A stretch of 64,000 nt of DNA, from NCBI GenBank assembly GCA_963738405.1, contig CAVTWJ010000009.1, forward strand, positions 4,793 through 68,792, written 5' to 3'. Position 1 is the stretch's first letter. The number at the start of each line of letters is the position of its first letter. A model generated the notes under the pieces. The model made no database searches and had not been told where the DNA came from. It saw nothing but the letters and a program-made list of their open reading frames with translations. The translations under genes and the position numbers were made by a program. Shown piece after piece: positions 7,286-38,442 of this stretch. This stretch comes from a candidate division FCPU426 bacterium. Its GTDB lineage: Bacteria; Oederibacteriota; Muellerivitia; Muellerivitales; Muellerivitaceae.

Positions 7286-7303
7286 AAAAAAGAGGAAGTT
7301 GAC

Positions 7304-13086: not shown

Positions 13087-13088
13087 AA

Positions 13089-14943: not shown

Positions 14944-14962
14944 AGTTGTGTTAGGGTTTGAT

Positions 14963-19063: not shown

Positions 19064-19135
19064 GTTCAGTCGCCCTGTCACATTCGCGTCCGTAGTTCCT
19101 TTTTCGTTCTAACGTCGGAAAGTGGGGAGGCGGGG

Positions 19136-19789: not shown

Positions 19790-19967
19790 TTACCCCGTCC
19801 GGGGTTGAAAGTGTTGAAAATTTGTCCGATTTTGCCCCCCTTTTTACCTCCCGCCGTAAAAAATCGGTAAAAGTTCACAAACGTATATTGCCCGGTTCTC
19901 AATTTTGAAAATAATATTTCTTGTTGGGGCCGTCTGGGCCAAACCCGTCCTTCGGTACCCTCAACCC

Positions 19968-20146
19968 GGTAAACAAAATCCACAAGTGGGTAAACAGTTC
20001 GGATAACCGGGTAAACAACAATCTCAACTAGGTAAACAAGGTCCGTAACCCGGTAAACAACCCACGCCAACCGGGTAAACAGGGACCCATAACTGGGTAA
20101 ACAGCCACTCTCAACCGGGTAAACAAGATTTCCCCGGGTAAACAAA
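19968..20146 (+). repeat. array of 9 direct repeats CGGGTAAACA at 21-22-bp spacing (iteron-like), preceded by an AT-rich segment (19895-19925)
   Basis: GGTAAACA occurrences start at 19968, 19989, 20010, 20031, 20052, 20074, 20096, 20118, 20137. Confidence 0.85.
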
Positions 20147-20156
20147 GGATTTTGCC

Positions 20157-22322
20157 GTGCCCCAACCTACGCCCGAATCAAAGGCCTGGATGGAAAGTTT
20201 GTCCGACCTGGCCGCCGACATTGAAAAACATCAAAAAGTTAAACATGCCGATCGGGCGGACGCCCTCGACCTTCACCCTACCAAGTTATCCTTCCTTTTG
20301 GCACTCCACCGGTGTTTGGACCCTGCGGCCCTTGCGAAAATCCGTCAGGCCGCCCAGGGGGATCACCCCTTTACCCTATCCTTTAAAAGCGCCAAGGCCT
20401 TGGCAGAGCTAGAGGGCCGGGTTCCTGATCTGTCAAAGGCGGTCCATGAGGCCTTAGACCAGATTCTGCCCCACCACCTAGCCACCCTGCAGATCAAAGC
20501 CCTGGTGGACCATATGGCCAGCGGCAAACCCGCCCAGGAATTTGACCCGACCCAGGTTAAAAAGACCCCCAAGGGTGGCCTTTCCCTCCAATCCCCAAGC
20601 CCTGACCCACCCCAAGAAGCCGAAGAGGATTCGGAGGATGAAGAACCGGAAGAAGAACCAACCAACCCAAAGGCCAAAAAGAAGACCTCTGCCCTGAGGT
20701 TTCAAACCGAGGGGCAAGGTTTGAGTGTACCCATTCCCAAAAAAGGAATGGGTAAGGCCAAAGGTCCCAACCTAAAACCCGCCAAGAAGGCCCTCAAAGG
20801 CGGGTTTAAAGACCTCCTCAAATACATTCACGAATATGTCAAAGCGGGCAGTAAGGCTGTGGCCGATTATTTCATTCCCTTGCACTCCCGTTCTAGCGGT
20901 AAGCGGGGAGGGGCCCAGTCCCTGCCCAACCTCTTCCGCTTTGCGGGCCATTGGGGGCTCTACTGGTTTTGCGTCCTGTTTATGTATGGCGGTAGCATCA
21001 GCTTCGTGGGGCACTTTATCCCCGGGGTGGGCCCCTGGATCGACGGCCTTCGGCTGGCTTTTTTCCACTTCATCCTTCACCTGCCTCTATGGCTCCTGGC
21101 ACAGGCGCTGGCCAAGCCCTGGGTGGTTCTAGTGCTAGGCGTTGCTCTGGTCTGGTGGATTCACAAGGAATTCCACGCCGGGTTGATGGCCACCCTCATC
21201 GTCGCGGCGGTTTTGGGCGCGGGATGGTATTTCCGGGGCTGGGTAATGGAACATCTACCAAATTTGACAAACCCATTTTCACCACCAAGTCTCCAAGACA
21301 CCAAGAACGACCAAGCCTTGGATAACAGCAAAACCCAAAGCCCCATAACCTCACCACCCAAGGCGGCCGGTTCCCCTATGGAACCGGCACAGCCAAGTCA
21401 TGGGCCTCGACCTGTCGTCTCGGCCCAGGCGCCCTCTGCCCGGAGGTCTCAAACCGACGGGCGTGACTTGAGTGCACCAATTCCGGAAAAAGGAATTGGT
21501 GTACAGGCCATGCCCAAAGAAGACCGGGCCTCTTTAGAAGCAGAAATCGCCGCCCTGCCCCGGCCCTGCCGGGTCAAAGATTTTCCCATCGAACCCGACC
21601 CCAATATAGGCGCCGAAATGGCAGGCCGCCGCCTCTCGGATATCCAGGACCCGGAAAAATATTCGCTTCGCGTGGGGCCCGATGAAAAAAAGATTACATC
21701 GGCGGTGGTGAATGGCTCCGGTTTCAACATGGAAATCCAAGGCGGCTTTTCGCTGGGGGACATCAACAGCGTCTTGGGCGATTCATCAAAAAAGGGAATG
21801 GCGTTTTATTGGGAAGACGTGCGGGCCATCCATTGTTGCGAGGTGGATGTGCTGGGGGATCACCCCCGTACCCTTTACCAATGCGGTTTGCTGATTGCGG
21901 GTTTGAAAAAGCCCATCACCGTGCAATGCGCAAGTGTTGAGGACTTGGGGCACCTGGTTTCGGGGCTGGAATTTTGGGTGCGAAACGCGCAGGGGGGCAA
22001 GAACGCGCCGATTGGCGGTTTGCCCTATCTGTACCAGGGCCTTCTGTTGGGCAGTGAAGGGGAAGTGATAGGTACTTGGGATAACAGCCCCATCGCGAAA
22101 ACGGGTTTTATGCCGGGCGATCATATATGGTCTGTGGATTCGAACCCCGGCATGCGCATGGGCAACGAGGAATTGCTTTCGAGTCTGCAAGACCTGTCGC
22201 CGGGCCCGCACGCGCTGTTTGTGGTGGACCCGGGTGAATGGGTGAAGGGAATGACGGGCCCAAGAAACAGAACCTGGGTTTTCAACCCGAAAAGAGTGAA
22301 GCTTCAATTGCTGGTTCAGTAA
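20157..22322 (+). CDS. large hypothetical protein, function unknown (acidic/Pro-rich linker, central 4-5 TM helices, internal SxPIPxKGxG repeat, possible C-terminal PDZ-like segment)
   Basis: 721-aa ORF with a GTG start directly after the repeat array (an alternative ATG lies at about 20186). Low-complexity EEDSEDEEPEEEP. Hydrophobic core LYWFCVLFMYGGSISFVGHF...VVLVLGVALVWWI. Confidence 0.5.
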   Translation: MPQPTPESKAWMESLSDLAADIEKHQKVKHADRADALDLHPTKLSFLLALHRCLDPAALAKIRQAAQGDHPFTLSFKSAKALAELEGRVPDLSKAVHEALDQILPHHLATLQIKALVDHMASGKPAQEFDPTQVKKTPKGGLSLQSPSPDPPQEAEEDSEDEEPEEEPTNPKAKKKTSALRFQTEGQGLSVPIPKKGMGKAKGPNLKPAKKALKGGFKDLLKYIHEYVKAGSKAVADYFIPLHSRSSGKRGGAQSLPNLFRFAGHWGLYWFCVLFMYGGSISFVGHFIPGVGPWIDGLRLAFFHFILHLPLWLLAQALAKPWVVLVLGVALVWWIHKEFHAGLMATLIVAAVLGAGWYFRGWVMEHLPNLTNPFSPPSLQDTKNDQALDNSKTQSPITSPPKAAGSPMEPAQPSHGPRPVVSAQAPSARRSQTDGRDLSAPIPEKGIGVQAMPKEDRASLEAEIAALPRPCRVKDFPIEPDPNIGAEMAGRRLSDIQDPEKYSLRVGPDEKKITSAVVNGSGFNMEIQGGFSLGDINSVLGDSSKKGMAFYWEDVRAIHCCEVDVLGDHPRTLYQCGLLIAGLKKPITVQCASVEDLGHLVSGLEFWVRNAQGGKNAPIGGLPYLYQGLLLGSEGEVIGTWDNSPIAKTGFMPGDHIWSVDSNPGMRMGNEELLSSLQDLSPGPHALFVVDPGEWVKGMTGPRNRTWVFNPKRVKLQLLVQ
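22158..22322 (+). repeat. direct repeat copy 1 (the 3' end of the 721-aa gene); copy 2 at 23100-23264
   Basis: About 165 bp with about 95% identity: atgggcaacgaggaattgctttcgag...caacccgaaaag. Confidence 0.85.
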
Positions 22323-22449
22323 TTGGAGTCCTCAAACCGTGGCATTCGTCTTGTGAACGAATGCCAGAGATGAAATTAACTGTGACGACCAAGTCGTCTT
22401 CTTGAGTTGATTTAAAATAGATGGTATAACAGTTATACCTGGAGCATGG

Positions 22450-22728
22450 ATGCGGTTTAAATTCGACAGGAACAAGAGCCATAAACTCCGCCGAAACCCC
22501 GCGCGCGGCATTGGTTTCGAGGAAGCCCAAAGAATATGGGAAAGCCCTTACTACCTCGACCAACGTTCCGACTTTCCGGAACAATGGAGGGCCATTGGCT
22601 GGGTGGGAGATAGGCTTTATTCCGTGATCTATGAAGAAAGAAGGGACCGGGAAGGGGATTACATCCACTTGGTCACTCTTTGGAAATCCACCAAGGAAGA
22701 AAGGAAATTATATGAAACCCATTCTTAA
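22450..22728 (+). CDS. brnT: BrnT-family toxin (DUF497) of a type II toxin-antitoxin pair
   Basis: MRFKFDRNKSHKLRRNPARGIGFEEAQRIW...YSVIYEERRDREGDYIHLVTLWKSTKEERKLY fits the BrnT pattern. Confidence 0.7.
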   Translation: MRFKFDRNKSHKLRRNPARGIGFEEAQRIWESPYYLDQRSDFPEQWRAIGWVGDRLYSVIYEERRDREGDYIHLVTLWKSTKEERKLYETHS

Positions 22729-22996
22729 GACAAAAAAAGTTCTGACGGCGGAACAAATAGCCCAAATGGCCGACAAGGGTAAGGATGTTTCCAAGCATTT
22801 CACGAACCATGGAAAAATGATGCCCGCCATCCGCCGGGTCAATGTGGATTTCGCCGAAAACATGCTGCGGGAATTGGACGGTTTGGTCCGCGAGATGAAC
22901 GTAAGCCGTCAGGCGGTCATCAAAGCTTTCCTGCGCCAGGGATTGGATCAGCACTACTTAGCCAAGAAAAAACGCCCGCATCCAACCGCTCATTAA
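22712..22996 (+). CDS. brnA: BrnA-like antitoxin (ribbon-helix-helix)
   Basis: Overlaps brnT by 17 nt. C-terminal RHH-like NVSRQAVIKAFLRQGLDQH. Confidence 0.6.
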   Translation: MKPILKTKKVLTAEQIAQMADKGKDVSKHFTNHGKMMPAIRRVNVDFAENMLRELDGLVREMNVSRQAVIKAFLRQGLDQHYLAKKKRPHPTAH

Positions 22997-23099
22997 CTCT
23001 TTAGTCCGATCCGGAAAACACAGGATGTAGTGGTGCCTTAAAAGGGGTGTATTAGAGTGGATCTGAAATTTTCTTTTTTCAGGCCTGACCCCTTTTACA

Positions 23100-23264
23100 C
23101 ATGGGCAACGAGGAATTGCTTTCGAGGCTGCAAGACCTGTCGCCGGGCCCGCACGCGCTGTTTGTGGTGGACCCGGGCGAATGGGTGAAGGGAATGACGG
23201 GCCCAAGAAACAGAACCTGGGTCTTCAACCCGAAAAGGACGAAGCTTGAATTGGATGTGCCGTA
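23100..23264 (+). repeat. direct repeat copy 2 (duplicated 3' end of the 721-aa gene; remnant ORF MGNEELLSRLQDLSPGPHALFVVDPGEWVKGMTGPRNRTWVFNPKRTKLELDVP)
   Basis: Aligned by eye to 22158-22322. Confidence 0.85.
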
Positions 23265-23284
23265 AAAGAGGTATATAAAGGGAA

Positions 23285-24283
23285 ATGAATTTGGATTACG
23301 TAGTCTGTAATTTTCTTTTTTCAGATCTGCCCCCTTTTACGATAATTAACGAATCGTTTGAACTTAAGGATATAAATTCGATGTTTTTAAAACCGAAAAC
23401 TTTAAAAATAAAACTTTACGAAGTGCCAACAACCAGCGAAAAAAATGTTATTGCAAAACTCCGAAAGGAGCTATTCCCAAAAGCTAATAAAGAAATGTTT
23501 TGGGGCATTGTCGCTGAATGGTATTCCTGGCTCAAACCAAACTGCAATCAAATTTCTATTTCAGACGCAGGCTATAAAACCAAATACGGGAAGGTTAATG
23601 TCAAAGAAATCGCTATTGCTCTTAACCGCCATCCAATAATTCTTCATGACAGTCAGTATCTCGAAACAACTTTTGTTCTATTACCTTGCTACCGATTTCT
23701 TTTTGACAACACCCTTGAGCCGTTGAGAATTTCGAAAGAACTTTTCGAAGCATTGAAAGAAATTAAAGAAAGAGATGCAAAAGAACATACTTCTATTTCA
23801 TATAAGGCTGACGAGCTGACCAAACGACTTGGTATGAAAGTAGATGAACCTTTCGAGGAAAAAATCCGTATGTTGTGCGATATAGGATTATTACACTGCT
23901 CTTCTTGGTCTTCAGGTTCCTCATTATTTGAAAATGCAACACTCAACATCAGCATTAAACCAACGGAAGAATATGAAGAGTGGTATAGAAATTTAATTTC
24001 TAATTTTGAGCGAGACGTAAATGACAACAAGAGAGAATTCTGGAAAAAAAACAAATTTTTACGTTGGCTCTCAGGGAAGGAATCCCTGACTGATAATGTT
24101 CTTGTTCCTGGTGAAATTTCCATTCAGGCTCAAAAACCAAGAATTTTACAAATTTCTATCCTTATACTTTTTATCCCACTCCTGGGCACAACCATCTATT
24201 TTGCTTCTCAAGCTAATTGGCCAGCCTGTGGAATATTTTTAACAGCAATATTAGCTTTATTGAATCTCGCCAAAGGGATGTAG
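23285..24283 (+). CDS. hypothetical protein with C-terminal double TM anchor (low-GC cassette, gene A)
   Basis: GC about 34%. C-terminal ILQISILILFIPLLGTTIYFASQANWPACGIFLTAILALLNL. Confidence 0.5.
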   Translation: MNLDYVVCNFLFSDLPPFTIINESFELKDINSMFLKPKTLKIKLYEVPTTSEKNVIAKLRKELFPKANKEMFWGIVAEWYSWLKPNCNQISISDAGYKTKYGKVNVKEIAIALNRHPIILHDSQYLETTFVLLPCYRFLFDNTLEPLRISKELFEALKEIKERDAKEHTSISYKADELTKRLGMKVDEPFEEKIRMLCDIGLLHCSSWSSGSSLFENATLNISIKPTEEYEEWYRNLISNFERDVNDNKREFWKKNKFLRWLSGKESLTDNVLVPGEISIQAQKPRILQISILILFIPLLGTTIYFASQANWPACGIFLTAILALLNLAKGM

Positions 24284-24285
24284 AA

Positions 24286-25500
24286 ATGTCGAATTCCGAA
24301 ATTCCAATCTCCAAAAATTATTTCTCGGCCAAAGGCAAAAATGCAGAAAGTTTTTTATACGAGCTTTCTAAGAAATCTTTTTTTGTAGATTGGTGTTATT
24401 TAAACCCTCTGTTACCAGACGGAAAAGAATTATGTGATCTGTTAATTGTGTTTGACGAAATTGCAATTATTTGGCAAATAAAGGATTTGAAGCCCAATAA
24501 AGACGGAGGAATTAAAGAGTCCGATTTTGAAAAAAACATAAAACAACTGTCCGGCGCACGCCGTACCCTTTTCGACCTTAAAACTCCAATTAAGTTGAAT
24601 AATCCAAGACGAGGGGAAGAAATATTCAACCCTGAAAAAATCAAAGAAATATATTTAATTGCAGTTTTCATCGGTGATTTTCAATCAAGCATTCCTTTAA
24701 TTGATTCAATCAAAAAATATTTGGTCCATATTTTCATAATGCCTTTTTTAGAAATAGTTTTGAACGAGCTAGATACCATTACTGATTTTATAGAATACTT
24801 AAGGTGCAAAGAAAAATTCATTACTTCTTTTAATCAACGGATAATTACTCTTTCCGGCGAAGAAGATTTTCTCGGTCTTTATCTTTTAAATGATAGAAAT
24901 TTAGACAAATTCAATAATGCTATTTTATTAACCGTTGCGGATGATATTTGGAAAGGATTTTCCACTTCTGAAAATTACAACCGCCGAGAAAAGGCTGATA
25001 AGAAAAGTTATTTTTGGGACAATCTGATTAATAGAGCCCATGAAGCAGAAACGGGAGAATACGAAATAATAGCTCGTGAATTGGCTCGTTTAAATCGCTT
25101 TGAAAGAAGATTGGCAAGTAACAGTTTTATTGAAGCCCATTTGTCGCTAAAGAATGATCCGAATAAATTATTCAAACGAACAATAGCAATTAAAGGCGTT
25201 TCTTATTGTTTTTTATTCGCTGGTGAAGCTGAAAAAGATATCGAGGAACGAAAAAATCTCTTGTTTCATACTTGTATGATTGTACGGATGCTTAAGCCTG
25301 AAAACAAAACCGTAATCGGCATTTCTACAAGTGCTGCGTATGGCCCAACATTTGGATATGAGTTTTTTTATATAAATATTCCAGAACTTTCTCAAAGTGA
25401 TATTGATGAAATCAAACAATACCAAAATAAGTTAGGGATCTACACCAAACCAGAAGAACACTTCAAGCAAGAATGGGAATATCCAAAAGATAAATCTTAA
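24286..25500 (+). CDS. NERD (nuclease-related, PD-(D/E)xK-like) domain protein (gene B)
   Basis: GKNAESFLYELSKKSFFVDWCYLNPLLPDGKELCDLLIVFDEIAIIWQIKDLK resembles the NERD core (G..E..v..L.kl...v..n.......EiDhlvi...gifvIEvKn). Start MSNSEIP at 24286 preferred over 24217. Confidence 0.45.
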   Translation: MSNSEIPISKNYFSAKGKNAESFLYELSKKSFFVDWCYLNPLLPDGKELCDLLIVFDEIAIIWQIKDLKPNKDGGIKESDFEKNIKQLSGARRTLFDLKTPIKLNNPRRGEEIFNPEKIKEIYLIAVFIGDFQSSIPLIDSIKKYLVHIFIMPFLEIVLNELDTITDFIEYLRCKEKFITSFNQRIITLSGEEDFLGLYLLNDRNLDKFNNAILLTVADDIWKGFSTSENYNRREKADKKSYFWDNLINRAHEAETGEYEIIARELARLNRFERRLASNSFIEAHLSLKNDPNKLFKRTIAIKGVSYCFLFAGEAEKDIEERKNLLFHTCMIVRMLKPENKTVIGISTSAAYGPTFGYEFFYINIPELSQSDIDEIKQYQNKLGIYTKPEEHFKQEWEYPKDKS

Positions 25501-25514
25501 GCTCTAAAAACACC

Positions 25515-26297
25515 ATGGAGGCTATTAAAATGCCATCCGAAATCCACACAGAAAATTCCGTAAAAGATAAATATAAAATCATGTATAAAAATTCTTACGC
25601 CTCAACTTTGCGAGACATTGCTGATTACGATTACATTTCGGCTCGACTTCTTCTTAGAAACCATTGCAAAGACCAATTTTTATATCTTGCCTACCAATCT
25701 CTAGAAAAGTACATGAAGTCCATTTTACTTTTTCATCTCCGAAAAAACAAAATCGGACATGATATTACAAAACTATTTGGTGAAATTTGTAAAATCACTG
25801 AGTTTGAGATCGGAAATAATCCAAGAATAAAGACCTTTATTGAAAGGTTTGATAATACTTTCGGGGACCCAAGATATTTATCGCTAGGATTTGCCGGTGA
25901 TTATAAGTATCTATTCGAACTAGATTATGCAGTTTGGAAACTTAGGATTTATTGTCAGCCTGAGAGAAACAGAATCTCTTTATTGGAAAAGGCGGACGAA
26001 AAAATATTGAAAAAATCATTCTTGAAAGGGACATTCTTACTTTGGTCGGGAGTATTAGAAGATGTTCATAAGGAAAAGAAAAAGGGCTTATATCAGAGTT
26101 TGGTTTGGTTTAATTCTTACTTTGGTCGTTTCAAAGGGAATGAAATGTCTCTCATGGGATATTGGTTTAAAAATTCTCCGTTGTTTTCAGGCAATGAAGA
26201 AAGACGCCTCTTAACTTACGAATCCATAAAGGACTATGTTCACATACCCCCGAAAATAAAAAACTACTTTGAAGATTTGAAAAAAAGGAACTCCTGA
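25515..26297 (+). CDS. HEPN-like protein (Rx5H motif) (gene C)
   Basis: DYDYISARLLLRN...FLYLAYQSLEKYMKSILLFHLRKNKIGHDITKLF. The R-x5-H and helical pattern resemble HEPN. Confidence 0.4.
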   Translation: MEAIKMPSEIHTENSVKDKYKIMYKNSYASTLRDIADYDYISARLLLRNHCKDQFLYLAYQSLEKYMKSILLFHLRKNKIGHDITKLFGEICKITEFEIGNNPRIKTFIERFDNTFGDPRYLSLGFAGDYKYLFELDYAVWKLRIYCQPERNRISLLEKADEKILKKSFLKGTFLLWSGVLEDVHKEKKKGLYQSLVWFNSYFGRFKGNEMSLMGYWFKNSPLFSGNEERRLLTYESIKDYVHIPPKIKNYFEDLKKRNS

Positions 26298-26465
26298 ACT
26301 GGTATGGAAGAAACGGACGGGGTCAGGCATGAAAAAAGAAAATTAAAGTTAATCGCACAACAATTACTAACATCACTTATATCCACGTCCTGAATCAGTT
26401 CGAACAAGACCTTAAGTTGTGTCTCCGTTAGTGGTAAAAGTCGCTTTTAATTAAATGGATAAATA

Positions 26466-27869
26466 ATGGAACCAAATCCTATCGAACAGCCATCATCCGA
26501 ACGGCAGGTTTACTATCCTGAAACGCTAAAGGGTTCAAAAGCCCTTTGGCCCTTAATTTTATTTGCTTCATTTGTTCCTTTGGGGTTCCTTTTTATATTT
26601 CTAAGCATTTATTTCCATACGGGAAGGCTTTATTTCCCCTGGTGGTCACCACGAATCCGTTCTTTGTATGTATTTTGGGTTTTTAATTTACTGGTTGTCT
26701 TTTTGAGGTTGAAAAGTCAAAAAGCTCATGCCGAAACATCACCGGAGGGTCTTGCGCAAGTGAATGCTTTTGGGAAACAGGTCGATATTCCCTGGGATGA
26801 AATCGGCCAGGTTTTGGTGGATGAGGGCGGTATTGTTCGGGTTAAGGACAAAACCGGTAAAAAAACCATCAACCTTTCGAAGTTTTATAAAAATTTTGAC
26901 CAACTGAAGAAAAGGGTTTTAGAAGAATACGAAACAAAAAGAATTCCCCAGGCGAAAGAAGCCGCCCTTTATGGCATGGCCTCGAAAGTCGGCATTATTT
27001 ATTTTTGGGGTGGGTTATTTATTCTGATTCTTGGTCTGACATCGGTAGTAGGCGGTGTTATGACCCTCATGGGTTATGGTGACACGAAAGTTAATCCATT
27101 GGTCAATGAGATCATCTTTTTAGTCTTCGGCCCAGCCTTCATTGCCCTTGCGGTTTACTGTCTTTGGTGGGGTGTGAGAGTTAAATACAGCAAAATCGAA
27201 ATTACTCAATCGGGAATCGCCAGGCTAGAGAAAGCTGGAAACCGGGTTTTTATTAAATGGGAGGATGTAGCCCGGTTGACCAAAAGGGAACGGATGAAAG
27301 ACATAGTGGTTACCAGCTTGGACCCATCTAAAAAAATCATGGTGGATTATCAATTTGAAGGGTTCGAGCAGATTCGAGACAGAGTTTTTATGGAATTCGA
27401 GAAAAGGCTGTCCTTGCCAGTGGTGGCCACGACCTACGGCCCAAAATGGATTCATCCCAACTTTGTCTTGATGGGATTTATGGGAGCTTTTATTGGACTA
27501 TTGTGTTTCGCCCGATTCAGCCAAAAAACCACAGGCGATACGAGCGGGTTTAACTTCTTAATTATCCTTTTAGTGGGTTTTTATTTGTTCATTCTTTTCG
27601 CGGAAACAAAAGCGGTGAAGGCCCTGACCTTAAACGGAAATGAAATTATCCTTCGCAAACTTTTTGGAAAGAAAATTCTACAAGGACGTGAAGTGGCGGA
27701 CATTTCCATGGATAGTATCGCGGGCCAACACGGGACTTTTTATTACCGAATTCAACTGACTGCCGAAGATGGGAAGAAATACATCTTCGCCAATGATCTT
27801 GGAACAGAAGTGGGTGTTTATCCGGTCCTCAAGAAATGGCTGGAGAAACAAAAAGGCGGACGAGGCTAG
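26466..27869 (+). CDS. YdbT-like membrane protein with three tandem [2 TM + bacterial PH (bPH_2)-like] modules (gene D)
   Basis: Three repeats of a hydrophobic hairpin followed by a soluble segment of about 90 aa (e.g. VDIPWDEIGQVLVDEGGIVRVKDKTGKK; VFIKWEDVARLTKRERMKDIVVT; LTLNGNEIILRKLFGKKILQGREVADISMD). Confidence 0.5.
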   Translation: MEPNPIEQPSSERQVYYPETLKGSKALWPLILFASFVPLGFLFIFLSIYFHTGRLYFPWWSPRIRSLYVFWVFNLLVVFLRLKSQKAHAETSPEGLAQVNAFGKQVDIPWDEIGQVLVDEGGIVRVKDKTGKKTINLSKFYKNFDQLKKRVLEEYETKRIPQAKEAALYGMASKVGIIYFWGGLFILILGLTSVVGGVMTLMGYGDTKVNPLVNEIIFLVFGPAFIALAVYCLWWGVRVKYSKIEITQSGIARLEKAGNRVFIKWEDVARLTKRERMKDIVVTSLDPSKKIMVDYQFEGFEQIRDRVFMEFEKRLSLPVVATTYGPKWIHPNFVLMGFMGAFIGLLCFARFSQKTTGDTSGFNFLIILLVGFYLFILFAETKAVKALTLNGNEIILRKLFGKKILQGREVADISMDSIAGQHGTFYYRIQLTAEDGKKYIFANDLGTEVGVYPVLKKWLEKQKGGRG

Positions 27870-28019
27870 GCCTGAAAAAATCTGTTTTACGACGTCCATT
27901 CAACTAAATCCCTTTTGAGTTAAGCCCTAATAAAAATAATGACTATGTCAATTTGGCAGGCTTTTTCCTACACTTCCCTTCGTTAGCAGGTGTTTTGAGG
28001 CGAAGAAAAACAGGGGAGA

Positions 28020-28976
28020 GTGAACATGAAGCATTTGAGCCAATTGGCAGGGATTGTTTTGTTACTTACCAGTTTTGTGGCGGTTTCCAATGCGGATACG
28101 CTTTTTGAACCCGTGAATTCCAACCAATCTTCCGCTTACCAACGGGACCCATCCAACTTATTGCAGTTCGCCAAGGCCGTTAAACCCACAAAGCACACCG
28201 AAGACGCCGCCGACGAAACCATCAACTTGTTCGATGGTTCGGGAACCTTCGTACAGCTTTACACTGGCTACGACTATTCCATCATGGGCGACATCAGCAA
28301 CGGTTTTAATAACCTCAAGCCGGCCTTCCTCAACGGCAGCCCAAGCCTATCGGCCGCGGGTGGGAGTTTTCAAAACAGCGGTATCCGCACGGGGGTGCTT
28401 TACGGCATCCACTTGGATTCCTCCAGCAGTTTTGCCTTGGATATCAGCAACGTCACGACCGTGCCTAGCAGTTTGACGTTTTCTACCGGGACGACGCAGG
28501 TGGCCAGCTTCAACCTGTTGCCTTCACTTTTTAGCGCCTCCATCGACTATTCCCTCAACCTCATCCAGGGACCGGGAAGCCGGACCTACGTGGCCCTGGG
28601 GGCCGGCTATTACCATGGAGCCGTGGCTTATTACGGCAGTGGGGGCGGGTACGGCAGTGGAACCTTCACGGGCGACAATATCGGTGGGACCTTGGGGATT
28701 GGGGAAGAGATCGCCCTAGGTTCGAATTTTGGGTTCAATTTTTCCTTGAACGGCCGTTACGCTTACTTCAGCCGGGCCAGTTCTAGCAATGCTGCCGGCT
28801 ACGCTGGCGGATCGGGCACCATTTCCCTGGCGCTCATCCAGCAAGGCCCGACCGGCCGGTTCCTGGTGCCGATTGCGAACAACCTGATCGATGCGAATCC
28901 CAACATCGTTTCCTACGCCGGGATGGACTTTTCGGGCATCGACGCCAACGCGGCGGTGGAATACCACTTTTTCTAA
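28020..28976 (+). CDS. outer-membrane beta-barrel protein (Gly/Ser/Asn-rich; C-terminal aromatic residue)
   Basis: Signal peptide MNMKHLSQLAGIVLLLTSFVAVSNA. Terminal ...NAAVEYHFF. Confidence 0.55.
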   Translation: MNMKHLSQLAGIVLLLTSFVAVSNADTLFEPVNSNQSSAYQRDPSNLLQFAKAVKPTKHTEDAADETINLFDGSGTFVQLYTGYDYSIMGDISNGFNNLKPAFLNGSPSLSAAGGSFQNSGIRTGVLYGIHLDSSSSFALDISNVTTVPSSLTFSTGTTQVASFNLLPSLFSASIDYSLNLIQGPGSRTYVALGAGYYHGAVAYYGSGGGYGSGTFTGDNIGGTLGIGEEIALGSNFGFNFSLNGRYAYFSRASSSNAAGYAGGSGTISLALIQQGPTGRFLVPIANNLIDANPNIVSYAGMDFSGIDANAAVEYHFF

Positions 28977-29020
28977 AAGCTTTTCGAAGGTCAGAATTTA
29001 TTTAGTTCGTTTTTCTAAAC

Positions 29021-29095
29021 GCGGTCCCCGGCACCACTTCCCAATGGGTGGAGCCGGGGTGCATCCAGATCAAAGGTAGGGCCATCCAATCCCCT
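29021..29095. repeat. about 75-bp repeat, copy 1, derived from the 3' coding region of the PA14-fusion gene; copy 2 at 30591-30662
   Basis: Identical 37-bp core ACTTCCCAATGGGTGGAGCCGGGGTGCATCCAGATCA at 29036-29072 and 30603-30639, with similar flanks. Confidence 0.8.
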
Positions 29096-29204
29096 TTAGC
29101 GCTCAAAACCTATCAGATAATATTGGGTTATTGTTGGTTAATGTTTGGTTGATAACTGGAAAATACCGGATAGAATGCGTAAACTTACTTAGAGGGAGGC
29201 GACC

Positions 29205-29573
29205 ATGTCCACGCCGCTTTTAGATCTGCCAAAAGACCATCTTTCGTTATTTAAAAAAAACAAACCCGACTATGAGAACATCGTGGATTTCCTACATCTC
29301 AAAAGGGTGGATGTGGCAAAGGCAACGGGGCTGGCGACCTCTTCAGTCCGTTTTGATGGGAAAATACCTCAGGAATTATCCGAGATACTTCTTCAATGGG
29401 CGGTTTTGTTCAATAAAGTAGCGGAATTTTTTAAGGGCGATGTTTATAAAACGAATCTTTGGTTCAATGTTCCGAATCCTTTGTTGGGAAATATAACTCC
29501 AAAAGATATGATCCGGCTGGGCCGCTATAAAAAACTTTATAGTTTTGTTTCACAGGCTATCGAAGACAATTAA
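29205..29573 (+). CDS. Xre/MbcA/ParS-like antitoxin (DUF2384 toxin-binding domain)
   Basis: C-terminal NLWFNVPNPLLGNITPKDMIRLGRYKKL matches the DUF2384 pattern (A..W...PN..LGG.TPL....T). Confidence 0.6.
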   Translation: MSTPLLDLPKDHLSLFKKNKPDYENIVDFLHLKRVDVAKATGLATSSVRFDGKIPQELSEILLQWAVLFNKVAEFFKGDVYKTNLWFNVPNPLLGNITPKDMIRLGRYKKLYSFVSQAIEDN

Positions 29574-29587
29574 AACAGGTATTTAAG

Positions 29588-30505
29588 ATGGATAAGAGCC
29601 GGCGAAAAAAGAAACTTGATTCCCGCGCCTTATCCTTTCTCCTCCCGACCTATTTACCTCTGGATCAATTCAATGTTCTTGACGTGCAGCGTTGGCAATC
29701 CGGCCAACAAAAGCTCAAGGATTTTTATGGGCAATGGTATTTCGAATTAGCCAGGCAACGTTCCCGGGCGAAAGAATCAATCAATCGCTCACTTCAGAAG
29801 GCAAGCACACCCTATTCTTTCTCCCCTTGTTATAGGGTATTTCGCTTTAAATGGGCCTTGGGCCCGCTTTCTTCCAAAGGAAGCCTTAAGGTTCCGGGTG
29901 GACGTTTCAATATCGGTGACATCGACGAGAGCTTATTTCAGAAATTTCCCGCCCTTTATTTGGCTGAAGACGCAGATACGGCTCTCTGTGAAATGATAGG
30001 ACCGAGACGAAATCCTTTGGAAACATTCAACCAATTTGATTTGGCTTCGATTAATGAGAAATCATTATCAATTGTGGCAACTTATGGGGAACTTGAATCG
30101 GTGGTGGATTTGACCAATCGGGAATGCCTGAAAGAATTTATTGATGTAGTTAAAACTTTTACCGTTTCCAAAAGTCTTGAAAAATTGGCCCAGGAAGTGC
30201 GGATCAATCTAAATGGCGGCACGGTTAATAGCGTGGATCTTCTTATGGAAACCCTCATGAATCCTAATTGGAGACAATTTCCAATGCATGTCGATGTACC
30301 CGCAAATTCTCAAATATTTGGACAGCTTGTTTGGGACGCAGGAATCGAAGGGGTTGTCTATTCCTCGAAATACACTAATAAAAAGTGTTTTGCGATTTTC
30401 CCGAATAACCTCAAGGGCGGCGATTCATTTGTGGAAATTATGGATGATGTTCCCAAAGGCGCAATTAAGCGTTTAGACTCCAAAACGTGGGAAAAACTTA
30501 TTTAA
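29588..30505 (+). CDS. RES-domain toxin (NAD-targeting toxin family) with N-terminal extension
   Basis: CYRVFRFKW, GGRFNIGD, FPALYLAEDADTALCEM, VVYSSKYTN supply RES-domain R/E/S positions. The gene is 15 nt downstream of the antitoxin. Confidence 0.6.
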   Translation: MDKSRRKKKLDSRALSFLLPTYLPLDQFNVLDVQRWQSGQQKLKDFYGQWYFELARQRSRAKESINRSLQKASTPYSFSPCYRVFRFKWALGPLSSKGSLKVPGGRFNIGDIDESLFQKFPALYLAEDADTALCEMIGPRRNPLETFNQFDLASINEKSLSIVATYGELESVVDLTNRECLKEFIDVVKTFTVSKSLEKLAQEVRINLNGGTVNSVDLLMETLMNPNWRQFPMHVDVPANSQIFGQLVWDAGIEGVVYSSKYTNKKCFAIFPNNLKGGDSFVEIMDDVPKGAIKRLDSKTWEKLI

Positions 30506-30556
30506 ACAATAGTGGAAATAAAGTTATAAGACCCGAAAAATTTTTAAGTCCAAGAC

Positions 30557-32701
30557 TCAAAGCTTACGTTGGTTGATCTTCCCGAAAGTAGAGGCTGGCA
30601 CAACTTCCCAATGGGTGGAGCCGGGGTGCATCCAGATCAGATTCACGGCCATCGAATCCCCGCCCGTCTTAATAAATTCCACTTTGATCGAATGTTCTCC
30701 CTTATGAAGGTTCAGTTTTTTATCTGAAGGCATTCCCGCTCCATAAATCTTTTTCCCATCCAAGAAAATAGTCCCTTGGTCCTGGGTCAGGCATTCAAAT
30801 TGATATTCGCCTGAAGCTGGAATTTCCAAATGGCCCTTCCAGCGGATGCTGAAGGGGGGCGGGTTGGTGAAGGGAAAGTCCTGCTTGCTGGTGAAATTCA
30901 AAAGAGGGTCGCTCTTTACCGTCACGGGAGTCCCCAAAAAGAAGCTGGTGTTCCAATAGGTTCCCGTCAGGCCCTTATCCCAACCCTTGAAAGAATTGAC
31001 CGTTAGATTGGATATGGCGTAGCAGGAGACAAGGGTTCGTCCATCCGGGCTTTGCAAAGCATCCTCTGTGCCTCCAGGAAAAATAGTTTTGAGAAGGTCC
31101 AAAACCCCGGCCTTGCCCTCCTCCGTGAAAAAAACCGCGTCCTTGTCCTTAGCTAAATTTCCGGCGGCCAGATCGTTGAGATTGAAACGAACGATGGCCG
31201 CCCCCGAGGCATCGGCGAGGAACCGGGTGGTATGGTTTTCGTAGTAAAGGGGCGGGAGATAAAAGCGGTAGCGGCCCGGATATAGTTTTTCCAGGTTTTC
31301 AACGCCCCGGCCGATGTAAGTCTGCTCTAACCCAAATGAGGTCTGGCAGGCGGGGTCTTGGTCCATCTTCTCGAAATAGATCAGGTAGTTTTGAACCGCG
31401 ATGGGGGCAATCAGGGCAAAACCCAAAAAAGGAATAAGCCATTTCGTTTTATTGGAAAGGGCTAAGCGCCGCCAGAATTCTTCCATCGTGGTTCCGGCGA
31501 AATAGGCGGCAAAGACCGAGAGAATCCAAAGCCGGTTGGAATTGGCGGGGTCATTCGCCAGCGTCCCTACGGCGAGGAAGATCAGAAAACCCGCCAGGGG
31601 ATAAAACCCGCCCCTTTCTTTGCGCCGCAACCAAGCCAGGCCCAGCCCCAAAACAAAACAGACCCCGGTGATGTCATCCAGCATCCGGGTTCCCGGCAGA
31701 TTATGGCGGGGGTTGGGGTCGCCTTGGCGGTTGAACATCAAAATATTCGAAACCGCCTGGTCCCAGAGGGGTTTCAAACTGTGCTGGGCTTTGATGTTGT
31801 TGCCGATGAAGATGTCGCTCTCCCGGTTTCCCGCCGTGTGGTTCAAGACCAAATAGGCCAAGAGGGGCAGGGCCAAAAGCAAAAAGAGCCCCGCCCAAAG
31901 AGCCAGAGCCCTGGCCTTCTTTGATCCCCTGCGAAACTCGTAAAACCCGAAGAGCAAAAAGAGAAGGGGAACCACTTTGAAGATTTGGTAGGTATAGAGC
32001 CCCAGTCCCAAAAAGAGCGCCGAAGGGTAAAAAGAAGATTTCTGGTTCTTCATGACCCAATGGAGCCAAAAGGCCAGCCCGGCGAAAAGAAAAAAGCCGG
32101 TTTGGCAGGAAGGATACCCGGTGCGGGGCTCAATCCAGTTCCACCGCATGAGCCCCAATAATAGAAACGAAAGGAGGGCGGTTCGGGGGCCCGCTAACTG
32201 CCGAATGGCCCAATAGATGAAAGGGAAAGAAGCCATGGCGAGGGTTACGAAGAACAGGTGGAAGGACAGGTAGGAAGAACCGAAAAGCCAAAACCAACCC
32301 GCCAGGAAATAGGGAATCAGCAGTTCGGGAACCGGGTAGCTGTAAATGTCGTAAAAGGGCCGCCAGCCCTTCAAAACCCAAAGGCCGTATTCCCCTTCCA
32401 GCCCCTGGTCGGTGTGCATCCCATCGGGCATGGAATCCAGTTGATAGACCCGAAGGAAGAGGGCGATCAGGAAAATAAAAACAAAGGCAACCGTTTCGAC
32501 ATCAAGAGAAAGGGGCTCGAAAGCCGGGGAGCCGATCTGGGGGTCCCGAAACAACAGCCAAAGGGCCAGGCCGTAAAAAAATAATCCGGGAGCCAAGGTC
32601 CAGGGTGCGCCGGACTGGGCCATCCAGAACTGCCCCAAGGCCGCCGATAGAAGCGGCGCCCAACATTTCATCCAGGAAGGGCGTGTGGTTGAAGGGGGCA
32701 A
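30557..32701 (-). CDS. polytopic membrane glycosyltransferase-like protein (GT39/ArnT/PMT-like, about 12 TM) fused to a C-terminal PA14 domain
   Basis: N-terminal two-thirds is multi-TM. C-terminus GTYWNTSFFLGTPV...SIRWKGHLEIPASGEYQFECLTQDQGTIFLDGKKIY is PA14-like. Confidence 0.55.
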   Translation of the reverse strand: MPPSTTRPSWMKCWAPLLSAALGQFWMAQSGAPWTLAPGLFFYGLALWLLFRDPQIGSPAFEPLSLDVETVAFVFIFLIALFLRVYQLDSMPDGMHTDQGLEGEYGLWVLKGWRPFYDIYSYPVPELLIPYFLAGWFWLFGSSYLSFHLFFVTLAMASFPFIYWAIRQLAGPRTALLSFLLLGLMRWNWIEPRTGYPSCQTGFFLFAGLAFWLHWVMKNQKSSFYPSALFLGLGLYTYQIFKVVPLLFLLFGFYEFRRGSKKARALALWAGLFLLLALPLLAYLVLNHTAGNRESDIFIGNNIKAQHSLKPLWDQAVSNILMFNRQGDPNPRHNLPGTRMLDDITGVCFVLGLGLAWLRRKERGGFYPLAGFLIFLAVGTLANDPANSNRLWILSVFAAYFAGTTMEEFWRRLALSNKTKWLIPFLGFALIAPIAVQNYLIYFEKMDQDPACQTSFGLEQTYIGRGVENLEKLYPGRYRFYLPPLYYENHTTRFLADASGAAIVRFNLNDLAAGNLAKDKDAVFFTEEGKAGVLDLLKTIFPGGTEDALQSPDGRTLVSCYAISNLTVNSFKGWDKGLTGTYWNTSFFLGTPVTVKSDPLLNFTSKQDFPFTNPPPFSIRWKGHLEIPASGEYQFECLTQDQGTIFLDGKKIYGAGMPSDKKLNLHKGEHSIKVEFIKTGGDSMAVNLIWMHPGSTHWEVVPASTFGKINQRKL

Positions 32702-32836
32702 GAGCGATCCTTGAGTTGAAATCAGCCACTATCATAACCCATCCGAGGGCTTGGCCGCCGTTGACGGTCCTTCAGCCCGGCCCTAGGATAGGTCTTGCTG
32801 AAAAGTACCGGCAGTGGCTCAGTTTGAATTAACGCC

Positions 32837-32960
32837 GTCATTGCGAGGCCCAGCCCCAATCGGGGTGGTTTGAGCCGTGGCAATCTCAGTTAAAAGCCGA
32901 AAAAAACCTGGGATTCCCACGTCGCAAACCAAGCCTATCGGCTTTGCTCCTCGGAATGAC
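32837..32960. repeat. empty copy (C) of the palindromic element family
   Basis: GTCATTGCGAGGCCCAGCCCCAATCGGGGTGGTTTGAGCCGTGGCAATCTCAG ... GGGATTCCCACGTCGCAAACCAAGCCTATCGGCTTTGCTCCTCGGAATGAC. Confidence 0.75.
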
Positions 32961-33016
32961 AAACAGACCTAAAATCTGTTTTATCTTTTTTAAAATTAGT
33001 TTCCCCCGGAGGGAAC

Positions 33017-33520
33017 TTGAAAGCCGCCTCTTGGATCTTGACTGGACTTTTCGCGCTTCTCCTCGTCTGGTCCCTTTCCCAAATGCCCTCACCCGGCGAT
33101 CCTACCGCCCCCCTCTCCGTCCATATCAGTTCCCGATACGCCTCCCAATCGGCCTCCGAAACGGGTTTTAACAACCCCTTGTCCGCGGTGCTGGGCGACT
33201 ACCGGTCTTTCGACCTTGTCCTCTTATCCCTTCTTTCCCTGGGGGCCTGCCTGGTGGGTTGGGGAAGCGCCCGGGAACAGGAATCCCAACTGCCCCCCCT
33301 GCGCCGTCTCTTTTTCGTTCTTTGCGTCCTGGGAAGCCTGGCCCTCATCGGCCTGGGTTTCTACACCCTCTTCAAGGGATGCCGTTTCCTCGACTATGAA
33401 TGCTGGGTGCAATTCGCGCCGCCCGCGGCGGCCAGGGTATTAGGCGCCGAATGGTCACTGGGACTGGCCCTACTGGTATTTTTTCTTTCTTTCTTTGTCC
33501 GTTCCAAAGGGAAACCATGA
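33017..33520 (+). CDS. MnhB/MrpB-like cation:proton antiporter subunit
   Basis: Small 4-TM protein in front of NuoK-like and NuoN-like genes, overlapping the next start. Confidence 0.45.
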   Translation: MKAASWILTGLFALLLVWSLSQMPSPGDPTAPLSVHISSRYASQSASETGFNNPLSAVLGDYRSFDLVLLSLLSLGACLVGWGSAREQESQLPPLRRLFFVLCVLGSLALIGLGFYTLFKGCRFLDYECWVQFAPPAAARVLGAEWSLGLALLVFFLSFFVRSKGKP

Positions 33521-35459: not shown

Positions 35460-35849
35460 ATGGAACAAATCCAAGTCAGCCTGCAGATCGGCGAGGTCGC
35501 CAAGGCCAGCGGACTTTCTATCCATACCATCCGCTATTACGAAAAGGAGGGGCTGCTCAAAGAGCCTTTTCGAAGCGGGGGCGGTTTCCGGCTTTACCCT
35601 GGTGAAACCGTAGATCAACTGCTTTTCATCCAGAAGGCCCAGGGTTTCGGGCTGACCCTGAATGAGATCAAGCAAATCATGTGCTGCGGGGACCAGGGGC
35701 TGGGCCCCTGCTGCGATCTGACGGTGGACCTGTTCGCGAAAAAAATTGACGAGTTCGAGGCCAAGATCAAGGAACTGCAGGGCATGAAGAAGAAATTGAA
35801 GACCGTGTTGGGAAGCTGGGTGGGAAAGAAAAAAAGTAAGGGAGGCTGA
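35460..35849 (+). CDS. MerR-family transcriptional regulator with vicinal cysteine pairs (C75 C76 ... C84 C85)
   Basis: HTH IGEVAKASGLSIHTIRYYEKEGLL. MCCGDQGLGPCC precedes the coiled-coil. No C-terminal metal loop. Confidence 0.8.
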   Translation: MEQIQVSLQIGEVAKASGLSIHTIRYYEKEGLLKEPFRSGGGFRLYPGETVDQLLFIQKAQGFGLTLNEIKQIMCCGDQGLGPCCDLTVDLFAKKIDEFEAKIKELQGMKKKLKTVLGSWVGKKKSKGG

Positions 35850-35850
35850 T

Positions 35851-36291
35851 ATGGCGCAAAAGGTCTTGATTCTCTGCACAAAAAACTCCTGCCGGTCCCA
35901 AATGGCGGAAGGGGTTTTAAAACATTACGGCGGCGATAAGTTCATCGTCGAGAGCGCGGGCTTGGAGCCCACCCACGTCAACAAGAACGCCATCAAGGTG
36001 ATGGCGGAAATCGGCATCGACATTTCGGGGCAACATTCAAAAGACGTAGTCGATTTTCTCGGGGATTACTTCGGCTACATCATCACCGTCTGCTCCGACG
36101 CGGATCAAAGATGCCCTATCTTCCCTGGGGTATCCAGGAGGCTCTATTGGCCCTTTAACGACCCGCCCCAGACGGAAGTGGAAACGCCGGAGATTCTGGA
36201 TGAGTTCCGGAAGGTGAGGGACGAGATCGTCGTAAAGTTCAAGGAAGTCGCTGAGAAGGGCTTCCCGCTTATCGCCGAGTCGAAGGGTTAA
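35851..36291 (+). CDS. arsC: arsenate reductase, LMW-PTP/thioredoxin-coupled type
   Basis: CTKNSCRSQMAEG P-loop; ITVCSDADQRCP. Confidence 0.8.
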   Translation: MAQKVLILCTKNSCRSQMAEGVLKHYGGDKFIVESAGLEPTHVNKNAIKVMAEIGIDISGQHSKDVVDFLGDYFGYIITVCSDADQRCPIFPGVSRRLYWPFNDPPQTEVETPEILDEFRKVRDEIVVKFKEVAEKGFPLIAESKG

Positions 36292-36312
36292 AAATTCGAG
36301 GAGGAGTCTGGA

Positions 36313-37161: not shown

Positions 37162-37217
37162 AACCGGCGGCCCCAATAGCCGGCAAGGGGAAGAACGCCA
37201 CGGGCCTAGCCGCCAAG

Positions 37218-38255: not shown

Positions 38256-38275
38256 CCCCGAAAGTGTTTTTTGTT

Positions 38276-38313
38276 CCAAGACCCTGCGGGTCTTTGGTTT
38301 TGACTTTCTCTTT
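38276..38313 (+). terminator. rho-independent terminator after acr3
   Basis: CCAAGACCC-tgc-GGGTCTTTGG followed by TTTTGACTTTCTCTTT. Confidence 0.5.
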
Positions 38314-38442
38314 CCGCCGGTCAGGTTTGCGGGGCCCACTGGAACGGGCAGCTCCACCCGTAAGTCCTGGCCGGGGAAGGAGTTTTCAACCGCTTGATTT
38401 ACGATGGCGCTCGTCTCAAATTAAATCATGAAGGAATAACCC

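Follow-up and report, generated by a model that had tools for sequence, protein, structure and literature searches.

A toxin-antitoxin (TA) operon of the RES-Xre type lies against the 3' end of a glycosyltransferase gene in the stretch of DNA analysed here, a 64-kb segment (hereafter the window) of contig CAVTWJ010000009.1 from a candidate division FCPU426 bacterium. The gene encodes a GT39 glycosyltransferase with a C-terminal PA14 domain (GT39-PA14), and two copies of its tail bracket the TA pair. We are highly confident that the pair, which appears to be intact, forms a type II operon akin to MbcT/MbcA, ParT/ParS and NatT/NatR. Its composition and surroundings also make it very likely that the pair is a foreign insertion at the 3' end of the GT39-PA14 gene. 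Taken as a whole, the evidence suggests that the operon was probably acquired horizontally, through homology, as an islet that carries cargo and nothing else, and a homologous single crossover is our tentative choice among the routes by which this may have happened.

The cassette and the gene tails that bracket it

A perfect 37-nt sequence, referred to below as the core, occurs on either side of the TA pair (Table 1). The sequence-only reading had reported it, and the match is exact at both sites, which are the sole two copies in the window when up to three mismatches are allowed; shuffling the window 100 times gave an expectation of 0 chance recurrences. Ungapped extension of the core yields a direct repeat of 65 nt with 89% identity and a spacing of 1567 nt. 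The bracketing repeat described earlier thus exists, but as DNA it is shorter than the claimed 75 bp or so; likeness between the two tails at the peptide level reaches beyond the 65 nt, over about 31 codons. In the orientation of the gene, the mismatches between the copies number six in the 22 nt upstream of the core, none in its 37 nt and one in the last 6 nt. Given seven mismatches in 65 nt, a perfect run of at least 37 nt has a permutation P of 0.0135.

The downstream copy of the repeat belongs to the live gene, which ends ...GGDSMAVNLIWMHPGSTHWEVVPASTFGKINQRKL*, whereas the upstream copy lies in an orphan fragment. On the minus strand the orphan reads KGDWMALPLIWMHPGSTHWEVVPGTAFRKTN*, and stop codons stand ahead of this reading frame, leaving, as the sequence-only reading had it, a non-coding fragment; it is a gene tail with its own stop. 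Homologues of the host protein of about 700 aa have the same architecture and end in the conserved tail GDWMALHLIWxxPGxxxWEVVPATAFGKI. Because this motif is kept throughout the GT39-PA14 family, the orphan is a genuine homologous tail.

The earlier claim that the orphan duplicates the C-terminal coding region of the PA14 gene stands insofar as the bracket does consist of the 3' coding end, but the orphan is not simply copied from the gene beside it and is closer to the orthologues. In the 22 nt 5' of the core, it differs from the live copy at six positions and from the orthologue at locus L041 at three. At the peptide level, tblastn gives the orphan 82% identity with the tail of orthologue P0122 and 73% with the live tail. 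Moreover, 25 nt separate the end of the orphan from the stop codon of a convergent open reading frame (ORF), which is the usual geometry for the end of this gene. It has the appearance of an original or allelic tail that was displaced, and the tail now on the gene may be the more recent arrival. Judged from these comparisons, the repeat pair is a recombination mosaic rather than a plain duplicate of the present gene end; on the simplest reading, the orphan would hold the resident or an allelic tail and the crossover would have fallen inside the core.

Dispersal of the repeat over many unrelated loci was not seen: beyond its two window copies, the 37-mer was found in none of 127 fetched loci and not in IMG/VR, the genome and metagenome collections not having been searched for the repeat DNA. 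Short PA14 fragments in the host-protein cluster look like frameshifted genes, not orphans.

Two rival accounts of the orphan can be weighed at this point. The first is that metagenome assembly joined two strain variants, a suspicion to which a metagenome-assembled contig is open and which the breaking of a k=31 assembly graph by a 37-nt repeat could feed. We find it barely credible. An assembler needs real k-mer links to pass from the end of the cassette into a second tail copy, an independent run (ERR11718638) gives the identical cassette bounded by both core copies, and the same architecture is seen in many independent assemblies from several projects and phyla. The second account makes the orphan a remnant of a deleted neighbouring paralogue of the GT39-PA14 gene, with the TA pair between the two by coincidence. 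The orphan is indeed a genuine homologous tail that has its own stop and has diverged from the live copy, and the window contains a second PMT_2 gene (45223-47460). Nevertheless, the three host-gene relatives at L041, L042 and L044 each have a single gene at the locus, without an orphan. The core is perfect between the two copies, synonymous sites included, whereas three orthologues depart from it at 4-7 positions in an alignment of 3' ends. Finally, brackets of this kind are found around cassettes at numerous unrelated genes, and a deleted paralogue is in our view very improbable.

The foreign character of the cassette is apparent from its composition and from its relatives. Between the repeats (29095-30596) the GC content is 0.414, below the 0.533 of the window as a whole and the 53.6% of the host gene. 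In blastn comparisons, the closest cassettes align with the pair and the region ahead of it, L048 to window positions 29145-30506 at 73% and L053 to 29128-30066 at 75%. Nothing past the toxin stop codon aligns to either of them, and their gene neighbours are unrelated.

The cassette is also part of a larger variable island (Table 1) with a GC content of 0.447, compared with 0.545-0.561 in the flanks. The relatives of the host gene in L041, L042 and L044 (63-73% identity) preserve the surrounding synteny, with ACR_tran, an ABC transporter and PCMT on one side and ORFs of 167 and 111 aa followed by Proton_antipo_M on the other, while the content between PCMT and the PA14 gene varies among these three loci and the window. 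In L041, PCMT lies 40 nt from the stop codon of the PA14 gene and the site is empty; in L044, the same interval carries MNT/HepT and PIN TA pairs. This evidence was drawn from the protein database and from contig look-ups, and a scan of the genome collection with the PA14 protein returned no relative. Because the three loci share their flanks but differ between PCMT and the PA14 gene, the cassette can be placed at the gene-proximal edge of an insertion hotspot, one that gathers TA modules in more than one lineage. The pairs of L044, MNT/HepT and PIN/DUF6364 (12885-13506 and 14412-15085), are located on either side of PCMT, and an examination of both for bracketing direct repeats found none.

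Table 1. Coordinates of the cassette, its bracket, the host gene and the second bracketed module in the window.
Feature	Position	Strand	Remarks
Variable island, 10.8 kb	19790..30556	.	Between PCMT (19136-19789) and the stop codon of the PA14 gene
Second case of a bracketed TA	22157..23341	+	Tail of the 721-aa gene plus downstream spacer twice, head to tail; cassette inside first copy
BrnT	22450-22728	.	
BrnA	~22712-22996	.	
Orphan 3'-end fragment of the GT39-PA14 gene	29002..29097	-	31 codons (KGDWMALPLIWMHPGSTHWEVVPGTAFRKTN) and own stop; no upstream ORF
Upstream copy of the 65-nt repeat	29030..29094	.	Perfect core 29036-29072
Conserved mobile unit: promoter region, antitoxin, toxin	29128..30506	+	DNA homology to closest cassettes; ends exactly at toxin stop
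Promoter-like site TTGATA, 16 nt, TAGAAT	29149..29176	+	10/12 consensus matches; 29 nt upstream of antitoxin start
Xre/MbcA/ParS-family antitoxin, 122 aa	29205..29573	+	Sub-threshold family matches; orthologue profile matches MbcA
Long-form RES-domain toxin, 305 aa	29588..30505	+	PF08808, E 3.3e-12; conserved helical N-terminal region of ~85 aa
Host gene: GT39 (PMT_2/ArnT-like) glycosyltransferase with C-terminal PA14 domain, 714 aa	30557..32701	-	Pfam; intact despite insertion
Downstream copy of the 65-nt repeat	30597..30661	.	Core 30603-30639; within last 35 codons of live gene

The toxin-antitoxin operon

The identification of the pair as an Xre(DUF2384)-RES module, first made from the letters of the DNA, is borne out for both proteins. 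The toxin matches RES (PF08808) over aa 81-280 with 47.1 bits, well above the curated Pfam cut-off of 23.2. It has 451 detectable homologues, and the best 120 of these are nearly all 285-338 aa long, with a query coverage of 90-100%. In an alignment of 33 RES homologues, three residues are invariant, R106, E135 and S260. Their order and context suggest that they correspond to the catalytic R/E/S of MbcT or ParT. The first 85 residues or so are conserved in the same alignment, and within them Q57 and R58 are invariant.

The predicted fold of the toxin resembles those of solved RES toxins. An AlphaFold2 model of the 305-aa protein, with a predicted local distance difference test score (pLDDT) of 82.6, has a helical N-terminal region that packs on the core of the protein. 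The best Foldseek match in the PDB is MbcT (6fkg; E 9e-7, probability 1.0, target TM-score 0.60-0.65), followed by the RES protein of P. putida (9r35) and NatT (8qnq). At the level of sequence, a profile of the RES family found no match among PDB entries at E values up to 1. The analogy with MbcT (PMC6436930) and NatT (PMC11535050) leads one to expect either NAD+ consumption or ADP-ribosylation of a target as the activity of the toxin.

The N-terminal extension of about 85 aa had been described as unusually long. It is present, but within its family it is not unusual, being conserved in more than 100 homologues of 285-338 aa. Rather than an oddity of a single gene, the extension (~80-85 aa) defines a large, unstudied long-form subfamily of about 305 aa. 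The TA pair is accordingly a fresh member of a known family, within a subfamily that has no studied representative; with more than 400 homologues, none of them studied, the long-form toxins offer a target for work on NAD+-directed toxins.

The antitoxin is less readily recognized. As a single sequence, the 122-aa protein stays below every curated cut-off: 19.5 against 24.5 for PF09722 (the former DUF2384, a C-terminal toxin-binding domain), 29.7 against 90 for NF049845 (E 5e-7), and 25.3 against 57 for TIGR02293 (E 1e-5). The DUF2384 assignment made earlier holds at the profile level instead, where a profile built from 24 antitoxin orthologues matches MbcA (6fkg_C; E 9.4e-6, profile positions 21-109 of 115) and the DUF2384 protein 8gug_B (E 9e-5). 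The organization of the operon agrees with this assignment, with a gap of 14 nt between the two genes and an antitoxin homologue directly upstream of RES in 39 of 39 genome loci. By analogy with its relatives, the Xre-like protein would bind the toxin and act as a repressor of the operon. The promoter-like site ahead of it (Table 1) is a consensus match alone, and sites of this sort are no more frequent in the region than expected by chance. A PADLOC scan of the TA pair returned no match.

Routes of insertion

The single-crossover route can be described in some detail. Integration would have occurred through the last ~100 nt of the host gene, inside the hotspot where relatives hold other cargo. 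The donor would be a small DNA, either circular or ends-in, with the length of one repeat unit (1567 nt) and comprising the cassette and a diverged copy of the gene tail, and it would have undergone one Campbell-type recombination with the resident gene within the 37-nt identical core, mediated by host homologous recombination. A single crossover of this kind would itself duplicate the homologous segment, leaving one tail on the ORF and a second, of 31 codons and a stop, on the far side of the cassette. The repeats would also permit scarless excision: a crossover between the core copies would leave an in-frame gene with the end ...VVPGTAFRKTN* and regenerate the circle, by which the unit could spread between alleles of the same gene. 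On the gene strand, the predicted empty-site hybrid (live 5' part, core and orphan tail) is ...GATTCGATGGCCGTGAATCTGATCTGGATGCACCCCGGCTCCACCCATTGGGAAGTGGTGCCGGGGACCGCG... and the predicted circle junction is ...GATTGGATGGCCCTACCTTTGATCTGGATGCACCCCGGCTCCACCCATTGGGAAGTTGTGCCAGCCTCTAC.... Addiction to the TA pair would select against cells that lose the cassette, and such counter-selection of loss may be why repeat-flanked insertions persist mainly around TA and defence cargo.

A 1590-nt Logan contig (L001) was considered as a possible excised circle and rejected. It ends k-1 = 30 nt into each core copy with a mutual overlap of 23 nt, as produced by a break of the de Bruijn graph at the repeat.

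The RES-Xre circle of 1567 nt is postulated by analogy with a second bracketed TA module, BrnT/BrnA, at the tail of a 721-aa gene in the same island. The sequence-only reading had counted two modules in the window bracketed by a duplicated piece of the adjacent gene, and BrnT/BrnA is indeed surrounded by a 166-nt repeat of 93% identity (22157-22322 and 23100-23265). The second copy of the tail segment (23100-23341) is uninterrupted. The stretch that follows BrnA (23036-23099) is homologous to the one that follows the orphan tail (23259-23341), and the length of the BrnTA unit equals the repeat spacing of 943 nt. The first copy of the host segment thus contains the cassette and a new tail end, and the locus can be read as two alleles in tandem, an occupied one followed by an empty one. 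This order is expected from a single crossover of a circularised fragment with an empty allele, whereas target-site duplication would put the insert between the copies, and it makes BrnT/BrnA the most informative locus for the mechanism. Two smaller features are seen at the same place: a 37-nt direct repeat (89%; 23062-23098 and 23304-23340) around the orphan 721-aa tail, which is part of the tandem duplication of tail and spacer, and a third, decayed end of the 721-aa gene (...GTGGTGCCTTAA) after BrnA at ~23036.

Repeat-flanked cassettes are found at other loci as well. The flanks of the RES-Xre pair were compared in 39 genome and 80 metagenome loci. Near the module boundaries, direct repeats with a length of 50 nt or more occurred in ~13 of 95 unique testable loci (~1 in 7), as opposed to ~5 of 270 shifted control positions (odds ratio ~8, p ~3e-5). 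The repeats are locus-specific, and frequently one of the two copies is the 3' terminus of a large host gene, which may have either orientation. The genes that supply them include polA, encoding DNA polymerase I (L020), an AcrB-type transporter gene with the same geometry as in the window (L033), and a gene for a cytochrome c assembly protein (L002), while in L081 and L113 the repeats are the 3' ends of large unannotated ORFs. In L026 and L118/L119, the repeats end in the peptide motif ...LYGLTxEEI..VE and neither copy terminates a large ORF. The downstream repeat begins 0-20 nt past the toxin stop codon in six loci, and a search for a common junction motif across 13 repeat-flanked loci found none.

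The cargo of such repeats extends to PIN/RHH pairs, a TIR protein, an Rce1/CPBP protein and BrnTA. For example, L003 and L026 have three repeat copies with two different cassettes, PIN/RHH and a TIR protein. In L002 the brackets are nested, one repeat of 207 nt enclosing a 6-kb island and another of 264 nt enclosing an Rce1-like gene.

Some further details of these loci were recorded. L026 (repeats at 4011-4110, 5206-5346 and 6818-6959), L118 (345-422 and 1982-2059) and L119 (4310-4375 and 5947-6012) are three independent loci whose repeat encodes a tail of the type ...IDRLVYELYGLTEEEI..VE. Tails of the LYGLTxEEI type are presumably similar to the C-terminal ends of certain DNA methyltransferases and restriction enzymes of type IIG. 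The sole Pfam match of the adjacent 118-aa ORF in L026 is a weak one to HSDR_N (E 7.6e-4). At a control position of L009 away from the TA pair, a 70-nt direct repeat of 93% identity (8119-8188 and 11712-11779, 3.6 kb apart) may bracket another cassette of the same kind.

Mismatches within several repeat pairs are concentrated in one part of the repeat. In the pair at the 721-aa gene of the window, there are 3 in 138 nt versus 9 in 28 nt (p=5e-6); the corresponding counts are 17 in 147 versus 31 in 73 for the pair L002-574 (p=5e-7) and 18 in 198 versus 27 in 79 for L002-620 (p=1e-6). Because uniform decay cannot yield 2% and 32% divergence in one repeat, the copies are best read as mosaics of diverged alleles. 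Differences in L002-574 number 11, 5 and 32 at codon positions 1, 2 and 3. Since models with two alleles and with one decayed copy fit these counts about equally, the argument for two alleles rests on the uneven density of mismatches.

The same data bear on a duplication made locally at insertion. A break with long single-stranded overhangs could have been filled in, or a tandem duplication could have preceded the insertion, the mosaic arising later through decay of the orphan, allelic recombination or gene conversion. The repeats of L081, the youngest-looking pair, are 98% identical over 107 nt, as for a fresh duplication, and the codon-position counts of L002-574 would suit one selected and one neutral copy. 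However, the BrnTA insert lies within the first copy of the host segment and not between the copies. In addition, a divergence of 32-42% at the tail end stands beside 2-12% elsewhere in the same repeats, unlike uniform decay, and the PA14 orphan is nearer to the orthologue tail than to the live tail. A local duplication is therefore an improbable source of the bracket.

Site-specific movement deserves somewhat more weight, although we consider it unlikely. The cassette would then be a cargo-only satellite, akin to cis-mobilizable elements (CIMEs), moved in trans by a tyrosine or serine recombinase from elsewhere in the genome or from a helper element; the repeats would be attL and attR, the core would be the crossover region, and the element would have carried a replacement 3' end for its target, in the manner of phages and integrative and conjugative elements (ICEs) directed at tRNA or protein genes. 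The geometry at the gene 3' end, with its perfect core, diverged arms and intact target ORF, is that of attL/attR, and the three-copy arrays of L003 and L026 resemble tandem accretion at one att site. By contrast, Pfam searches of the cassette and of the large ORFs in the 64-kb window yielded no integrase or transposase match. Homologous cassettes use repeats from unrelated genes and share no junction motif, which would call for a separate integrase specificity at each locus, and several repeat pairs, such as L002-574, are without a long identical core.

A number of points weigh against acquisition by single crossover. Neither a circular form nor an empty-site allele nor a donor was seen. The statistics for the 65-nt repeat depend on just seven mismatches, and the counts behind the enrichment of flanking repeats were compiled by hand and are approximate. 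The three closest cassettes from the protein database (L045-L047) have no flanking repeats, and most insertions of the RES-Xre family leave no tail-duplication scar. Gene conversion after an unrelated duplication could also create a perfect core. Lastly, the scan for recombinases covered the 64-kb window of a 375-kb contig, and within it the island ORFs of 721, 332, 427, 318 and 467 aa, which have no detectable family, may hide a recombinase, a point that would equally favour movement in trans.

Five other classes of element were considered and rejected. For a diversity-generating retroelement, the window ORFs contain no reverse transcriptase domain, and the seven mismatches are of all base types and not adenine-specific. 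Integron attC sites are excluded by the folding of both repeat copies on both strands, which gave z-scores of +0.5 to +1.5 and no hairpin, and no integrase was found. Transposons, insertion sequences and miniature inverted-repeat transposable elements (MITEs) do not agree with cassette ends that have no inverted repeats, with the lack of a transposase or with a duplication that is 65 nt long and mosaic. An att site in a tRNA, tmRNA or other RNA gene is contradicted by the absence of tRNA genes from the window and of Rfam matches from 19000-33500. Carriage by phages or plasmids found no support, a search for RES relatives in IMG/VR viral contigs and PLSDB plasmids having returned none.

Relation to known systems and other features of the window

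RES-Xre systems that have been solved or characterised include MbcT/MbcA of M. tuberculosis (PMC6436930), Xre-RES of P. putida (PMC12204516) and NatT/NatR of P. aeruginosa (PMC11535050). The operon of the window shares with them the antitoxin-first two-gene order, the invariant R/E/S residues, the predicted fold and an antitoxin that aligns over the length of MbcA. It differs in the size of the toxin, 305 aa as opposed to 144-250 aa for solved relatives, in the conserved helical N-terminal region of ~85 aa and in an antitoxin that remains sub-threshold as a single sequence.

Elements that integrate at gene 3' ends, and their integrase-less derivatives, are known from ICESt1/ICESt3. Their replacement of the gene end, the CIMEs that lack an integrase and tandem accretion have been reviewed (PMC5704250). 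Points of likeness are the direct repeat over the target 3' end, the intact ORF, the identical core with diverged arms and the three-copy arrays. In contrast, the element of the window is 1.5 kb long with two cargo genes, and neither it nor the 64-kb window has an integrase. A further difference from att-using elements is that homologous cargo occurs without a common att site, the repeats coming from polA, AcrB-type and cytochrome c assembly genes, LYGLTxEEI ORFs and GT39-PA14.

In the minimal mobile elements (MMEs) of Neisseria, islets are swapped by homologous recombination in flanking core genes. TA islets have likewise been proposed to exchange by homologous recombination at flanking core genes, one of the TAs in that work having a duplicated 24-bp res-like palindrome and not gene tails (Belot et al., 2026; PMC13617665). 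As in these systems, the cassette is cargo-only, sits in a hotspot between conserved genes that holds other cargo in relatives, and has no mobility genes, with host recombination as the proposed agent. A double crossover, however, duplicates nothing, whereas the duplicated gene piece of the window points to a single-crossover or ends-in event.

Polymorphic toxins such as Rhs and CdiA offer another parallel, in that incoming toxin-immunity cassettes displace orphan C-terminal modules. Both there and here, a new 3' end and a linked protective pair would enter by recombination in a conserved stretch, and the old end would be orphaned downstream. The host gene in the window is, by contrast, a glycosyltransferase gene, the swapped tail has no known function of its own, and the cargo is an independent, convergent operon. 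With integron cassettes and clusters of attC sites lacking integron-integrases (CALIN), the likeness lies in small cassettes that are promoter-poor or self-promoted, often of TA type and separated by repeats, with arrays at some related loci. The repeats of the window differ from those of integrons in that they are not attC-like hairpins, one copy codes for PA14, they are locus-specific, and no IntI accompanies them. Overall, the insertion architecture resembles att-flanked satellites, the MMEs of Neisseria and the orphans of polymorphic toxins, and fully matches none of them.

How chromosomal TA and defence islets without mobility genes enter genomes is an open question, usually answered by decayed mobile elements or by double-crossover exchange. 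The loci described here have readable scars in the form of duplicated, mosaic host-gene tails, at about 1 in 7 loci of one TA family, in many phyla and also around other addictive or defence cargo. If single-crossover circles are responsible, TA modules could spread between alleles of conserved genes by RecA alone, insertions at the ends of essential genes such as polA could be tolerated, and an excess of TA cargo between repeats would be expected, since addiction prevents the reverse reaction. A more speculative and, in our estimate, doubtful extension is that TA and small defence cassettes form a recombinase-free mobile class. Each would have a host-tail 'homology handle' of 60-290 nt and would cycle between a circle and a repeat-flanked state by host recombination, the arrays being integron-like without an integrase and addiction locking the insertion in place. 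The alternative to such a class would be a trans-acting system, as yet undiscovered, whose insertion of cassettes at gene 3' ends generates long duplications. The main value of the proposal is a testable hypothesis for the movement of cargo-only islets.

Several features of the island outside the cassette were also recorded. The 721-aa ORF (20157-22322), which has no family match, is closely preceded by an iteron-like array at window positions 20043-20125. Such arrays also occur just upstream of its homologues in L002 (7198-7459) and L044 (12161-12712); their period is 21-22 nt (42-43 nt in L002), and they have motifs such as CCGGTAAAC or CGGTAGAC. The homologue in L002 has 620 aa and is 42% identical, and homology to that in L044 is confined to the N-terminal ~165 aa. 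Inspection by eye suggests that the N-terminal and C-terminal parts of the protein are conserved and that hydrophobic stretches lie between them. The protein is a marker of variable islands in three genomes, and its role could be that of a regulator or of a DNA-binding protein of the replication or partition type. Further downstream, positions 23285-27869 have a very low GC content (33-43%) and four ORFs, two of 332 and 427 aa without a family, one for a 260-aa HEPN protein (25515-26297) and one of 467 aa with weak matches to DUF2207_C and STM3941. This block is probably a separate acquired module and is possibly related to defence. PADLOC returned no match for six island ORFs (721, 332, 427, 260 [HEPN], 467 and 318 aa).

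Elsewhere in the window, three intergenic pairs of 54-nt repeats are located at 7303-7356 and 7679-7732, 14962-15015 and 15043-15096, and 32836-32889 and 32907-32960, the last pair just upstream of the start of the PA14 gene. They begin with CGTCATTGCGAGG... and finish with ...CCTCGCAATGAC, and they are palindromic, resembling repetitive extragenic palindromic (REP) sequences or MITEs. An arsenic-resistance-like cluster at 35460-38844 comprises genes for a MerR-family regulator, two low-molecular-weight phosphatases (ArsC-like), an S-adenosylmethionine (SAM) methyltransferase and an SBF/Acr3-like transporter. Finally, a GC-rich repeat with a 12-nt period (GGGCTCGTGGTC and similar) extends over positions 985-1620, within an ORF (11-1660) that has no family match.

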